Assembly (NCBI GenBank): GCA_036170915.1
Contig: JAVHQC010000023.1
Coordinates: 1 to 60,131 of the forward strand
Direction: 5' to 3'
Length of the DNA: 60,131 bases
Origin: Cyanobacteria bacterium auto_48_18
GTDB taxonomy: Bacteria; Cyanobacteriota; Vampirovibrionia; Obscuribacterales; Obscuribacteraceae
This document shows, piece after piece, positions 2,207 through 46,355 of the stretch. Each line of letters opens with the position of its first letter. Within the stretch, counting starts at the first letter, position 1. The notes beneath the pieces were generated by a model, which worked only from the letters and a program-made list of their open reading frames with translations, did no database searches and was not told the DNA's origin. The position numbers and the translations under genes were made by a program.

Positions 2207-2234
2207 AAAAAATACCTCCGGAGGTATTTTTTTT
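2207..2234. terminator. Perfect palindrome AAAAAATACCTCCGGAGGTATTTTTT between convergent genes; likely bidirectional terminator or REP-like repeat
   Basis: 13-bp arms with A/T tails. The same 14-bp core recurs at 37611-37624. Confidence 0.75.
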
Positions 2235-36049: not shown

Positions 36050-36730
36050 ATGATCACAAAGCCACTGGGCGAGATACCTGAGAAAACCCAAGAAGCAATC
36101 GTCATGCACCTGAAAAGGCAAGGCGAATTGACGGTCGGCGACCTCTGCACTTTCCTCGGTATCACATCTATGGCTGTGCGCAGGCATCTGACCGGTCTGC
36201 AAAAAGACGGCTTAATCGAGTCACGTATCGAACGCCAGACTCGCGGTCGACCAACTTACAAATATAAATTGACCGATAAAGCCGAGTCGCTTTTTCCTTC
36301 AGGTGGATCAACGCTGGCAGTCGATCTGCTCGATGCCGTTTACGAACAGGCCGGACACAAAGGCGTAATGGATTTACTCACCATTCGCAATAAAAAGCGC
36401 ATCGAACGTTTGCGCACTCGCGTGGAAGGAAAAACTCTAGCCGCACGAGTAGAAGAAGTTGCAAGAATCTTTTCAGAAGACGGCTACATGACTGAGTGGG
36501 AAAGTTTGCCCGACGGCAATTTCATCATCTATCAACGCCACTGCGCCGTGCATGATTTAGCTAATCAGTTTCGTCAATTGTGTTTGATGGAACCGCAGAT
36601 GATGCAAGCATTACTCGATGTAAAAGTCACGCGTGAGAAATATATTCTACGCAACGATCCGCTCTGCGCCTATGTTGTACATTCAGGTGTTGCTCCTCCT
36701 GAACTCAGTGTTGAATTACCGTCAGAATAA
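36050..36730 (+). CDS. sufR: SufR-like Fe-S-sensing transcriptional regulator
   Basis: N-terminal HTH (AVRRHL..L..GRP); C-terminal HC..LC.ME..C ligands; divergent from sufC. Confidence 0.85.
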   Translation: MITKPLGEIPEKTQEAIVMHLKRQGELTVGDLCTFLGITSMAVRRHLTGLQKDGLIESRIERQTRGRPTYKYKLTDKAESLFPSGGSTLAVDLLDAVYEQAGHKGVMDLLTIRNKKRIERLRTRVEGKTLAARVEEVARIFSEDGYMTEWESLPDGNFIIYQRHCAVHDLANQFRQLCLMEPQMMQALLDVKVTREKYILRNDPLCAYVVHSGVAPPELSVELPSE

Positions 36731-36737
36731 TTTTGTC

Positions 36738-37505
36738 CTAATGGCGCCGGGCGTTTTTTAGATCTATGTCACGAATAGGGCCGTGCTTGAGGCAGGCAAT
36801 TGAGAGCCAATCTGGCTCGTGCACTCTGCTTTGTAGGTAGCTTTCTAAATCAACTAGAAATCTTTTCCTTGATTCTGCATCGTTTTCATATGCCTGCTGT
36901 TCAATGCGAATAAAACGATTGCCGGGAATATTTTCAATCAATTGCCCCATTTCAAGCTCAAACAGTGCGCTTGATAGAAGTGTGACTTTTAGTTTCGATT
37001 GGTCCATAAGAGTGTCGAATGTAATTGATGTTTCGCTAATCAGTCCATATACGGACAGTGCATTTTGTGAAAGGTCTGGTGGCAGATGTTTATCTACTAC
37101 AGTACTTTTGATTTGTGGATTGAGTGGTAGATGAATTTCAATCACGCTTCTTGTTTTTTGCACAATCAATCGTGCGGATCTTTCGTTGACTGAGGCGAGT
37201 GTGGAAAGTTGATGTGCCGTTAGAAGCAATCCCAATTCTGAAAAATAAATTGCTGCATACCAAGCAAGTGGCCTTTTCATTCCTTTAAAGAGTGTACTTT
37301 CGAAAAAATGGGTTTCCTTATTGCAGCTGCGGCAAACAAGATACATGACCCCAAACTGTCTTTCTAAATTGTTATTTGATCCACATCGCAGGCATTTCAA
37401 TAGCCCCAGACCGTCGGCTAGTTTTGCGATTTTTTCAGTGCAATGGGCTGATGTTGGAAATTTGTTTTTAAACAATGCAAAGTAATCATCTAATCGAGAA
37501 TTCAT
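36738..37505 (-). CDS. IS1595-transposase-like zinc ribbon/HTH fused to a DprA-type winged helix; no DDE domain seen
   Basis: FPT..C, CLRCG..CRSC, TLFKGMKRPLAWYAAIY and SARLIVQKTR; then LSQNALSVY..FDTL..SALFELEMGQLIENIPGNRF. Confidence 0.65.
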   Translation of the reverse strand: MNSRLDDYFALFKNKFPTSAHCTEKIAKLADGLGLLKCLRCGSNNNLERQFGVMYLVCRSCNKETHFFESTLFKGMKRPLAWYAAIYFSELGLLLTAHQLSTLASVNERSARLIVQKTRSVIEIHLPLNPQIKSTVVDKHLPPDLSQNALSVYGLISETSITFDTLMDQSKLKVTLLSSALFELEMGQLIENIPGNRFIRIEQQAYENDAESRKRFLVDLESYLQSRVHEPDWLSIACLKHGPIRDIDLKNARRH

Positions 37506-37610
37506 GAATCGTGGCCTCGCTTACCCTTAATAAGGTAAACGTATTTACTTCGTCAAAAGTTCAATGATTCGAGAAAAAATTCGATTCGGTCCGTCGCCCC
37601 TGCGAAAATC

Positions 37611-37633
37611 TACCTCCGGAGGTAAATTTCCAG
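37611..37633. repeat. Second copy of the TACCTCCGGAGGTA palindrome with CTGGAAA flank (inverted relative to 2203-2226)
   Basis: Reverse complement CTGGAAATTTACCTCCGGAGGTA versus CTGGAAAAAATACCTCCGGAGGTA at 2203. Confidence 0.85.
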
Positions 37634-37683: not shown

Positions 37684-39207
37684 CTAAATACCCTTCAACT
37701 GCCAGAAGCTAGCTTGAGTTCTAGGTGAGACCACAGACAATTTGACGAAGTTGGCTGGCCCGCGAGCAGCAATCGGCAATCCGCCAGTAATAATAATAGT
37801 ATCTTGCGGCGCCACATGATTGCGTTTGAGCAGAGTCTCTTCAACCAGAGCCATTGTCGATTCTGAATCCGAAACTTCATTCAACATCAGCGGCGTGGTG
37901 CCCCAGGTTAAGGTCAATTGACGATAAACGTGAGTTTGTTGTGTCAAAGCAATGATAGGACATGGTGGCTTGAACTGAGAAATCAGCCTTGCAGTGGAAC
38001 CTGATTTTGTAAAAGTAGCAATTACTCGTGCATGCATATCGACAGCCATGGCGCATGCCGCGTGAGCAATGGCGTGCGCTGATGAACCAAGTTCATGCTC
38101 GTGTAACTTTGAGCGGTCCTGGCTGCTTTCTGCGGCGAAAGCAATGCGGTCCATCATCATCACAGTTTCAACCGGATATTCACCCATAGCGCTTTCTTCA
38201 GAAAGCATAACTGCATCAGTGCCGTCAAAAATAGCGTTGGCTACGTCTGAGGCTTCAGCCCTTGTAGGACGCGGATTATTAGCCATGGAATCAAGCATTT
38301 GGGTTGCTGTAATACATGGTTTGCCGTGAGCATTGGCCCGACGAATAATGAGTTTTTGAGCTGGCGGCACCATTTCTGGTGGCAATTCCACCCCAAGATC
38401 GCCGCGTGCCACCATAACACCATCTGTGACCAGAAGAATTTCTTCTAAATGATCGACGGCTTCAGGTTTTTCCAGTTTAGCGATAATCATTACTGGTGGC
38501 CAGTGATCGCCGATTTGCTCGCGCAAATCAACAATGTCTTGGGCATCACGAACAAATGACAGAGCAACAAAGTCGACTTCGCATTTGAGGCCGACTTTCA
38601 AATCTTCTTTATCTTTTTCAGTCAAGGCCGGAATCGAAAGTCTGACGCCGGGAATGTTAATGCCTTGATGATTTTTGAGCACTCCGCCGATGACAATTTC
38701 GCAAACAGCGTCAGTTTCGTCTACTTCTAAAACGCGCAATTCAATCAGACCGTCGTCGAGCAAAATCGTGTCACCAGGCTTAACTTCGCGAGCGAGGGGC
38801 TCGTAGTTGGTGCTGACGATTTCTACTGTACCTTCGACTTTGCGGCTGGTGAGAGTAAACTTCGCACCTTTTTCAAGCTTTACTGGCTTGTCGTCGATCA
38901 ATTTGCGAGTGCGAATTTTGGGGCCGGATAAATCAAGTAAAATGCCAACGGGCATATCCAGTCTGGCGCTGATTTCGCGTACATCTGCAACTACAGATTC
39001 AATAAATTCCGGGGTTGAGTGCGAGCAGTTGATGCGGGCAACGTCCATTCCGGCGCGAATCATTTCGGCTAGTTTTTCTGGCGCACGGCAGGCTGGACCA
39101 ATGGTAGCGATAATCTTGGTGCGAGTAAGTCTCATGTGAGCACTCTCCTTTTTATGAGCAGGAGCCTGCACGGCTGAGGTGTCGCTTTTTTCTAATTCAG
39201 TTTTCAA
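37684..39207 (-). CDS. pyk: Pyruvate kinase
   Basis: RTKIIATIGPA, DLSGPKIR, MVARGDLGVE, ATQMLDSM and PTRAEASDV motifs. Confidence 0.97.
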   Translation of the reverse strand: MKTELEKSDTSAVQAPAHKKESAHMRLTRTKIIATIGPACRAPEKLAEMIRAGMDVARINCSHSTPEFIESVVADVREISARLDMPVGILLDLSGPKIRTRKLIDDKPVKLEKGAKFTLTSRKVEGTVEIVSTNYEPLAREVKPGDTILLDDGLIELRVLEVDETDAVCEIVIGGVLKNHQGINIPGVRLSIPALTEKDKEDLKVGLKCEVDFVALSFVRDAQDIVDLREQIGDHWPPVMIIAKLEKPEAVDHLEEILLVTDGVMVARGDLGVELPPEMVPPAQKLIIRRANAHGKPCITATQMLDSMANNPRPTRAEASDVANAIFDGTDAVMLSEESAMGEYPVETVMMMDRIAFAAESSQDRSKLHEHELGSSAHAIAHAACAMAVDMHARVIATFTKSGSTARLISQFKPPCPIIALTQQTHVYRQLTLTWGTTPLMLNEVSDSESTMALVEETLLKRNHVAPQDTIIITGGLPIAARGPANFVKLSVVSPRTQASFWQLKGI

Positions 39208-45528: not shown

Positions 45529-45661
45529 ATTTGATTCTCGATGACTGTGCTTTTGCACACTGATTCAGGTTATTGGCTCTGTTATCTTCAACTAGCTGGT
45601 GGAGGGAAAAAGGGTAATTTGATTAACTCCTGTTAACAATTGCTTTTTTTACTCAAATAAT

Positions 45662-45687
45662 TGAACTTTTTCACTAGTTTTAGCGTT
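45662..45687 (+). promoter_or_regulatory. Putative autoregulatory ECF promoter (T)GAAC-N17-CGTT
   Basis: GAAC at 45663-45666 and CGTT at 45684-45687, directly upstream of the ECF sigma gene. Confidence 0.55.
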
Positions 45688-45710
45688 TTACCTATTAACC
45701 ACCCACAAGG

Positions 45711-46355
45711 TTGGAGACTATGGACCTTTCAGACGAGGCCCTGATAAAAAAATATAGAGTGGATGGGGACATGACTGTCTTCAGTACTTTAGTGAAGCGG
45801 TATCAAAACCGTGTGTTCATGATCGCGTACAGGCTTTTGAATAATAGCGAAGAAGCCGAGGAGGTTGTTCAAGACACTTTTGTCAAAGTGCATCAAAATT
45901 TCGATAAGTTTCGCACCGAGAATATCTTTGCTTCTTGGATTTTCCGCATTGCCCACAATCACTGTATGGATATTCTAAGACAAAGACAGAGAAAGAGGTC
46001 CACTGTAGTGGTGTCCTTTGATCCGCAGTCTACAGTAGCCGAGGAAGAAGGCGACCGAATCCTCAATCAACCGCTTTCGCAAGTTGCCGACGAGCAGCCG
46101 AATCCATCACAAAGTCTCGATATGAGTGAGCAGACCAATATGGTAGAAAGATCACTCAATGAGCTGCCTGAGGCCCAAAAAACCGTTTTGATTTTGCACG
46201 ATCTTCAAGGATTCTCCTATAGTGAAATTGCCGAAATTGTCGGCGCCAATATCGGCACCGTGCGCTCCAGGCTACATTATGGCCGTATCAAACTCAAAGA
46301 ATTGCTCGCTCCGTATTTTTCCAGTGAAGTTAATTTGCCCGCCACATTCAGGTGA
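45711..46355 (+). CDS. ECF RNA polymerase sigma factor (RpoE/SigW-like)
   Basis: Region 2 AEEVVQDTF..FASWIFRIAHN; region 4 SYSEIAEIVG..GTVRSRL. Confidence 0.95.
   Translation: METMDLSDEALIKKYRVDGDMTVFSTLVKRYQNRVFMIAYRLLNNSEEAEEVVQDTFVKVHQNFDKFRTENIFASWIFRIAHNHCMDILRQRQRKRSTVVVSFDPQSTVAEEEGDRILNQPLSQVADEQPNPSQSLDMSEQTNMVERSLNELPEAQKTVLILHDLQGFSYSEIAEIVGANIGTVRSRLHYGRIKLKELLAPYFSSEVNLPATFR

Follow-up and report, generated by a model that had tools for sequence, protein, structure and literature searches.

An IS1595-derived protein family with a DprA-type winged helix and its own extragenic palindromes in Melainabacteria

An open reading frame in the genome of Cyanobacteria bacterium auto_48_18 appears to join the DNA-binding part of an IS1595-type transposase to a winged helix of the kind found in DprA. 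Is it the remains of an insertion sequence or part of a working system, and what could such a combination be for? The gene lies at 36738..37505 on the minus strand of the window, by which we mean the whole stretch of 60,131 nucleotides that was analysed, and encodes a protein of 255 amino acids (P0001). The window belongs to a genome of 4.94 Mb, 86% complete (G000), whose sister genome is G006. The left neighbour (36050..36730, plus strand) is a regulator gene in which Pfam recognises only the HTH, its sufR-like name resting on the first-pass annotation and on the adjacent suf genes; the right neighbour (37684..39207, minus strand) is the pyruvate kinase gene pyk. The first-pass annotation described an intact reading frame, AT-richer than its surroundings, standing alone between sufR and pyk. 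The frame is indeed open throughout, the GC content of the locus is 0.39-0.41 in 300-bp windows against 0.479 genome-wide, and the position is as described; the gene is, however, not solitary, as the genome contains 10 family ORFs along with one true dprA. Besides the nine further family ORFs, that annotation overlooked a C-terminal IS1595 remnant, an upstream palindrome and a promoter-like motif.

P0001 contains, all encoded on the minus strand, a zinc ribbon (residues 36-64; 37314..37400), whose Cys38, 41, 58 and 61 are invariant in 147 sequences, an IS1595-type helix-turn-helix region (residues 79-125; 37131..37271), which we presume to read the palindromes described below, a DprA-type winged helix (residues 142-200; 36906..37082) and what remains of the C-terminal helices of IS1595 transposases (residues 212-254; 36744..36872). 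Single-sequence searches with P0001 returned one close relative and no IS1595 model, nor did Pfam list an IS1595 model for it at E<=1. Among 27 related proteins Zn_ribbon_IS1595 matched four below the Pfam cut-off, and DDE_Tnp_IS1595 (positions 125-152) matched one, also below cut-off. Profile-profile comparison (hhalign) of the family with five intact IS1595 transposases from relatives gave 99.3% (E 1.6e-20) in one run and 99.6% (E 1.2e-24) in a second, and the two profiles aligned end to end. The zinc ribbon, the HTH and the C-terminal helices are thus homologous over the full length to those of the IS1595-family (ISXO2-like) DDE transposases (PF12760 and PF12762).

The winged helix was recognised by Pfam itself (DprA_WH, PF17782; residues 142-196, E 1.1e-7, 32.2 bits where the cut-off is 22.9), and is 35% identical to the corresponding domain of the host DprA. 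No trace of a DDE/N core was detected: the columns to which intact elements align their EIDEA and RTDG motifs are non-acidic or belong to the winged helix, and neither a conserved catalytic triad nor any other evident catalytic set is present across 145 family sequences. Terminal inverted repeats (TIRs) and target site duplications (TSDs) were found neither at the P0001 locus nor among the 11 family copies of another genome (G051). As a control, all three intact IS1595 elements of the complete genome G003 (L038, L049 and L055) displayed 23-bp TIRs and 8-bp TSDs; these three elements are near-identical to one another. There was no tRNA gene in the 31 loci examined, and no joint was seen in the contigs of four DNA runs, whose one full match may be the source itself. 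These comparisons support a view of P0001 as a transposase-derived protein in which a DprA-type winged helix has taken the place of the DDE core. The first-pass annotation had proposed just this, an IS1595-like N-terminal module with a winged helix instead of the nuclease and no inverted repeats around the ORF, and its proposal is supported, although for the N-terminal module Pfam stays below its cut-off. It had also named a DDE triad with TIRs and a TSD as the mark of an ordinary or decayed element; the locus was searched for these and none was found. Its label, "domesticated or non-autonomous", stands in the first half: the missing TIRs and TSDs, together with the purifying selection described below, make "domesticated" the better-fitting word, and a non-autonomous IS fits less well.

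The AlphaFold2 model of P0001 is well folded (mean pLDDT 88.0, pTM 0.67), with weak linkers at residues 130-139 and 206-213. Foldseek found no match for the model at E<=0.001, and VIA-align matched its winged helix alone, so our claims about the fold are confined to that domain. Full-length family members consist of the zinc ribbon, the HTH, an RSxxTPAxxHPxxE motif, an acidic linker, the winged helix and the GISRKYLQ helices, in this order. P0001 lacks RSxxTPAxxHP, the most conserved motif of the family, as well as the helix preceding GISRKYLQ; it is therefore a trimmed member, and it sits on a long branch of the family tree. At E<=1e-30 against the 145-sequence profile, the family is present in 29 of the 33 genomes of the host family (one family of Melainabacteria) and in none of the other 117 genomes of the class. 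At 50% identity, 651 clusters reach the same threshold. In the ESM Atlas the nearest clusters carry the annotation "hypothetical", and their commonest taxon is Candidatus Melainabacteria. Five of the nine members in the complete genome G003 (L083, L085, L087, L089 and L091) have no winged helix and retain the promoter motif. Since they nest within the winged-helix clade, the domain was probably lost, perhaps repeatedly. The architecture, which the first-pass annotation did not recognise as described, is absent from the literature that we searched, a search that lay mostly outside subscription journals.

How did the gene come to lie here? In 13 other congeneric genomes with sufR it occurs at this place once (G006); sufR stands directly beside pyk in 10 and has a different neighbour in two, the 10 empty sites showing 9-325 bp between match ends. 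The sequence common to the 11 copies of G051 mostly begins at the palindrome and stops near the stop codon. Ten of the 11 belong to one clade (support 94/94; nine of them 98/96), which indicates that new loci are still being gained. Five paralogue pairs are syntenic between G000 and G006, though for one pair this holds on a single flank. Their dS values (0.41-0.71) match those of their neighbours (0.40-0.72), and their dN/dS (0.14-0.20) indicates purifying selection. The family thus differs from IS1595 elements in lacking the DDE core, TIRs and TSDs, in being inherited vertically under purifying selection, and in carrying a competence-type promoter motif.

This motif, TTGAAC-N17-CGTTTA, is found at 37536..37564 (minus strand) in front of the P0001 gene. 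Its general form, TTGAAC-N17-CGTYTA, which we take to resemble an ECF-sigma promoter, occurs within two mismatches upstream of 45 of 48 family members, and 9 of the 10 family genes in G000 have it. Of the 30 best sites of that genome 27 fall between genes; a spacer of 17 yields 42 hits compared to 5-15 for eight other spacers. None of 11 parsed intact IS1595 elements, two of them with cut upstream DNA, carries the motif. It does precede G000 genes which Pfam identifies as encoding a ComM-type protein (Mg_chelatase/ChlI; C29:102851), ComEC (C22:342234), RecA (C29:22410), a RadA-like ATPase (C33:157442), YraN (UPF0102; C35:269833) and XseA (C22:322642), and a comF-like gene (C33:114700) has it with a score just below the best sites. 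Of the 21 genomes parsed for the region in front of comM (nine of 30 loci were not parsed), 16 show the motif without mismatch and 20 with at most one, against 0/21 for coding controls. The host dprA is without the motif; in G051 and G003 the dprA gene comes with a near match. A motif common to comM, comEC, recA, radA, yraN, comF-like and xseA suggests natural competence in these Melainabacteria, a subject on which no paper was found in the literature searched. Toxin-antitoxin genes, LTXXQ genes and genes of the envelope belong to the set as well, so that the regulon might be one of general stress. Two DUF6088 genes (C15:59415 and C22:31189) and several toxin-antitoxin genes are among the bearers of the motif. 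Within the window the motif also lies, at approximate coordinates, upstream of an ECF-type sigma factor gene (45661..46355, plus strand), 8 kb from the P0001 gene. Judged from its own promoter region, this sigma factor would be a candidate regulator of the set, and perhaps an autoregulated sigma for competence or stress in this lineage.

The second companion of the gene is a loop-less palindrome at 37606..37629, with the core ACC-TCCGGA-GGT. An unsupervised census of the 4.94 Mb of G000, which leaves aside five palindromes from a single (AT)n run, returned 45 perfect palindromes with arms of at least 12 bp, against none in 2 Mb of order-3 Markov DNA. A loop-less palindrome adjoins the genes of most family members (45 of 60 by a loose rule), and its usual core is CCGAT-ATCGG. 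Its distance from the promoter motif, upstream of which it stands in most members, is about 40-125 bp; some paralogues have palindromes downstream. The palindromes fall into dialects, and six of these (A, B, D, E, F and G) each have a copy beside a paralogue, P0001 belonging to dialect A. It must be noted that the dialect consensus and the mismatch limits were set after the list had been inspected, and that the gene calls were made in this analysis. Three of the 10 paralogues in G000 (C15, C25 and C6:242k) have a weak adjacent palindrome at best. The 20 sites of dialect C (e.g. C22:75219, C36:91235 and C36:260417 in G000) are without a sure owner gene; a weak dialect-C match overlaps the promoter of the C15 paralogue.

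Of 120 dialect sites 100 are intergenic, and 46 of these lie between convergent genes, in gaps that make up 9.5% of the intergenic DNA; the second dialect-A palindrome of the window (2208..2231) is in such a gap. Counting loci within 45 kb of the cognate gene and leaving out the adjacent copy, we found clustering for dialects B (6 of 17, P 3e-7), D (3 of 7, P 1e-4) and E (4 of 4, P 1e-7). One of three dialect-F loci was this close, and there was no clustering for G (0 of 18) or for A (1 of 24, P 0.25, on a contig of just 60 kb). In the complete genome G003 all four copies of one dialect are found no more than about 100 kb from its gene, and in the complete genome G085 all nine pattern hits fall in 2.339-2.462 Mb. 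The G085 gene was predicted from this palindrome cluster and was found at 2,378,762-2,379,739, with a copy just upstream. One of three clusters in G042 has a listed family gene on its own contig. Dialect A counts 20 sites in G000, 29 in G006, one in G009 and none in 12 other genomes, and the two rich genomes are the two that carry a P0001-type gene; being sisters, they amount to one event. Dialect G and its paralogue occur in the same 3 of 15 genomes. Of 71 genomes with a strong family hit 53 contain the common core pattern, and none of the 10 that lack such a hit does; these counts overstate independence because the genomes are kin. The covariation of recognition helix and core type is, among these related and hence not independent sequences, no more than suggestive. 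Several paralogues, then, own a private dialect that is copied genome-wide, mostly between genes and often clustered at the gene.

One explanation would be that the paralogues are stress- or competence-induced transcription factors and the palindromes their operators, serving autoregulation and small regulons. The place of the adjacent palindrome upstream of the promoter motif and the site profiles, which resemble dyad binding sites tolerant of asymmetry, agree with it. We nevertheless consider it unlikely, because nearly half of the intergenic sites lie in convergent gaps, where there are no promoters, because a regulon would not be expected to cluster at the gene, and because of the palindromes downstream of some paralogues. 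Selection for hairpins was examined and not supported: the outer arms are not more complementary than those of between-site pairs (0.40 vs 0.38; 209 of 2000 permutations), so that the sites resemble those bound by dimers more than selected hairpins. The palindromes could also be bidirectional terminators or RNA-stabilising hairpins and the P0001 gene a decaying transposase remnant. Dialect A, with its A/T tracts on both sides and its preference for convergent gaps, would suit such a role, and P0001 is trimmed and on a long branch; but dialects B, D, E and F have no such tracts, and the dialects track their own genes across genomes. Both G000 and G006 alleles of the P0001 gene are open, with pN 0.33 against pS 0.72, and the protein model is well folded, so that we hold this explanation to be highly improbable. 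A terminator function can, moreover, be secondary, as with neisserial uptake sequences according to the available part of that report (PMC2397512).

The two sister genomes differ in both the gene and its palindromes. For the P0001 gene dS is 2.4, saturated in the N-terminal half, and 0.58 in the last 44 codons, and for the C3 paralogue it is 1.45. These two genes, 2 of 7 orthologous pairs, are far older than their flanks, and our reading is that recombination has replaced their alleles while the site stayed fixed; the closer likeness of the last 44 codons (window 36740-36860) to G006 marks one breakpoint. The palindrome next to the gene has the centre TCCGGA in G000 and TTTAAA in G006. Among 28 dialect-A sites of G006, 10 have TCCGGA at the G000 orthologue, nine against TTTAAA and one against TTCGAA, while eight have the same centre, one differs by one base, five are absent and four could not be placed. 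The palindrome at 2208..2231, TCCGGA in G000, has TTTAAA at the orthologous place of G006. The 10 switched centres agree with the gene-adjacent copy of each genome. Arms and flanks of the switched sites look ordinary, hence the centre alone has changed. Import of foreign flanks together with the sites was considered and dropped, as the flank identities to G006 overlap, by eye, between switched and unswitched sites. Since one-step forms (TTTGAA and TTCGAA) exist, stepwise mutation and fixation by selection or drive suffice to account for the change, short templated rewriting of the centres being a possible alternative. In dialect G, too, the adjacent copy has the centre that is commonest among the dispersed ones, GTGCAC in G000 and GTATAC in G006. 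Of 12 dialect-G sites examined, eight had no colinear two-sided orthologue and one had no site, and no core switching was seen at the three shared ones. In G009 no dialect-G copy is adjacent to the paralogue.

RAYT proteins, which are HUH tyrosine enzymes, offer a further explanation, by which the palindromes would be minimal mobile elements moved in trans by a P0001-type protein or by an intact IS1595 transposase. Neither Pfam nor NCBIfam matched an HUH tyrosine transposase domain in P0001. The anatomy agrees: the gene is flanked by a palindrome repeated in extragenic DNA, like that of the domesticated, mostly vertically inherited RAYT/TnpA-REP transposase beside its own family of extragenic palindromes, as far as the accessible part of the description goes (PMC5581495). 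Presence or absence at 5 of the 28 orthologous sites, tandem mosaics and local clusters reminiscent of local hopping point the same way. No TSD was seen at the presence/absence sites, however, the family has no conserved DDE or other evident catalytic set, the IS1595 transposase domain PF12762 found no match in the 86% complete G000, and a centre that changes in place is not an insertion. The TIRs of intact IS1595 elements in relatives are unlike the palindromes, so that extant IS1595 ends lend no support to the idea that the palindromes are relics of TIRs. Such mobility therefore seems to us very unlikely. RAYTs descend from IS200/IS605, whereas the P0001 family is DDE-derived and apparently non-catalytic, and it differs from the RAYT/REP system in its 5-30 sites per dialect, its local clusters and its link to competence. 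At four loci (L146, L155, L159 and L162) related palindromes stand in tandem with dialect A, their presence differing between G000 and G006 as in REP mosaics. Two dialect-A palindromes of G006 (L157 and L158) are missing from G000, which instead has at each place an accessory gene of ~700 bp (C10:57985-58739 and C10:40546-41323).

What is the winged helix for? The family consensus agrees near letter for letter with four DprA tails of the host family, which makes capture from dprA likely. The Rossmann-fold domain of DprA (DNA_processg_A, PF02481) is absent from P0001 and occurs only in the separate true dprA. Searched against solved structures, the winged helix of the host DprA gave no match; the family profile found winged helices, among them DprA (3MAJ) at E 0.023. 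According to the accessible part of a study on H. pylori and V. cholerae, DprA's winged helix binds ComM in both species and recruits it for branch migration, and that of H. pylori does not bind DNA (10.1101/2024.10.21.619469). The same work reports DprA and ComM to pair in a species-specific manner. In the family helix 3 is conserved in 147 sequences (L184 95%, E185 88%, L/I/M186 90%) and is hydrophobic-acidic, as in DprA. This also speaks against transcription factors, for which the likeness of the fold to ArsR/MarR regulators (Z about 10) could be quoted. A complex model of host ComM with P0001 residues 136-206 scored 0.72 against 0.00 for the best of three controls, a mark that, in a calibration holding roughly for these alignments, 116 of 157 solved pairs and 2 of 215 mismatched ones reached. 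The runs agreed in at least 95% of the contacts, with a partner pLDDT of at least 79, and placed P0001 helix 174-186 against the C-terminus of ComM. It is possible that this result stems from the likeness to the DprA-ComM pair. The contact is thus a predicted one; we regard the winged helix as probably serving to dock ComM, and not as a further domain for binding DNA.

It must be considered that P0001 could act as a general decoy of ComM. By reducing transformation it would keep the element from being cured, and the palindromes would be autoregulatory or storage sites and no more. The predicted ComM contact fits, as does the fact that mobile elements counter transformation and that comM is a frequent target, to judge from the part of a review available to us (PMC12378983). 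The decoy would, however, leave the genome-wide copies, the clustering and the concerted change of centres unexplained, and would have no need of ten paralogues with different dialects; we think it quite unlikely.

Our preferred explanation, to which we give a probability of about 0.5, is that P0001 is a competence-induced, non-catalytic adaptor which links palindrome tags to ComM and thereby biases transformation for tagged DNA. The protein would be made during competence from the promoter-like motif common to the transformation genes. The zinc ribbon and HTH, probably as a dimer, would bind the cognate palindrome, and the winged helix would hold the branch-migration helicase ComM as that of DprA does. 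With palindrome binding and ComM docking in one protein, transformation would favour DNA carrying the palindrome. The adaptor might load ComM onto incoming or freshly paired tagged DNA, or it might shield resident tagged DNA by trapping ComM, and we lean somewhat towards loading. Loading fits the known role of the domain, the allele replacements in two of seven pairs and the spreading unit that starts at the palindrome; against it, incoming DNA is single-stranded, yet no hairpin selection was seen. Shielding fits duplex binding, the clusters at the gene and the members without winged helix. Either way a molecular drive would result. Tags would build up near the gene and wherever an intergenic gap tolerates them, following the specificity of the current allele, and the unit of palindrome, promoter and gene would reach new loci by recombination, without transposition. 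In the part available, a study that describes YraN as working with ComM reports recombination events in A. baylyi with a median of about 6 kb for a 6.4-kb donor (PMC13663708).

More tentatively, at slightly less than even odds, the family could be regarded as a new class of selfish or domesticated element that has exchanged transposition for a transformation drive, a palindrome reader without DDE core that docks ComM and lets tagged DNA win. Paralogues would then diversify dialects and alleles displace each other at one locus, with the tags following. Such a system might, by analogy and with the same reserve, be the recombination-stage counterpart of DNA uptake sequences. These number in the thousands and act at DNA entry; the step proposed here is cytoplasmic recombination, and each paralogue would have a private, sparse tag. 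The accessible part of a study of the Neisseria uptake sequences and ComP shows similar features, namely short transformation tags, dialects, possible molecular drive and intergenic palindromic copies (PMC2397512).

It is interesting to compare the family with the transformation proteins themselves. DprA binds single-stranded DNA through its Rossmann domain without choice of sequence, whereas in the P0001 family, with its up to about a dozen paralogues, the winged helix is attached to a putative reader of specific sequences. The domain shared with the DprA/ComM system is near the host's own copy and was modelled on the C-terminal part of ComM, the protein to which DprA docks in the portion of the work at hand (10.1101/2024.10.21.619469). 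Natural transformation is regarded as a means by which genomes are cured of mobile elements. The counter-measures covered by the available part of the review act by breaking, repressing or blocking the machinery, or by degrading the DNA (PMC12378983). The inhibitors described there (comM disruption, RocRp, ComI and IdeA) are likewise element-derived factors acting on the transformation machinery, and Table 2 of that part contains no site-specific protein that binds ComM (PMC12378983).

What emerges is a system of gene plus palindrome, undescribed so far and found across the lineage, with ties to the machinery of transformation. Its anatomy is new; its mechanism we infer. Because protein, tag and promoter can all be named, tag drive and the co-evolution of protein and site are directly testable. 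If the proposal is true, a sequence-specific ComM adaptor would be a new route by which a mobile element meets transformation, giving locus-by-locus control of integration at the recombination step, and dispersed extragenic palindromes would have a second origin, independent of RAYTs.
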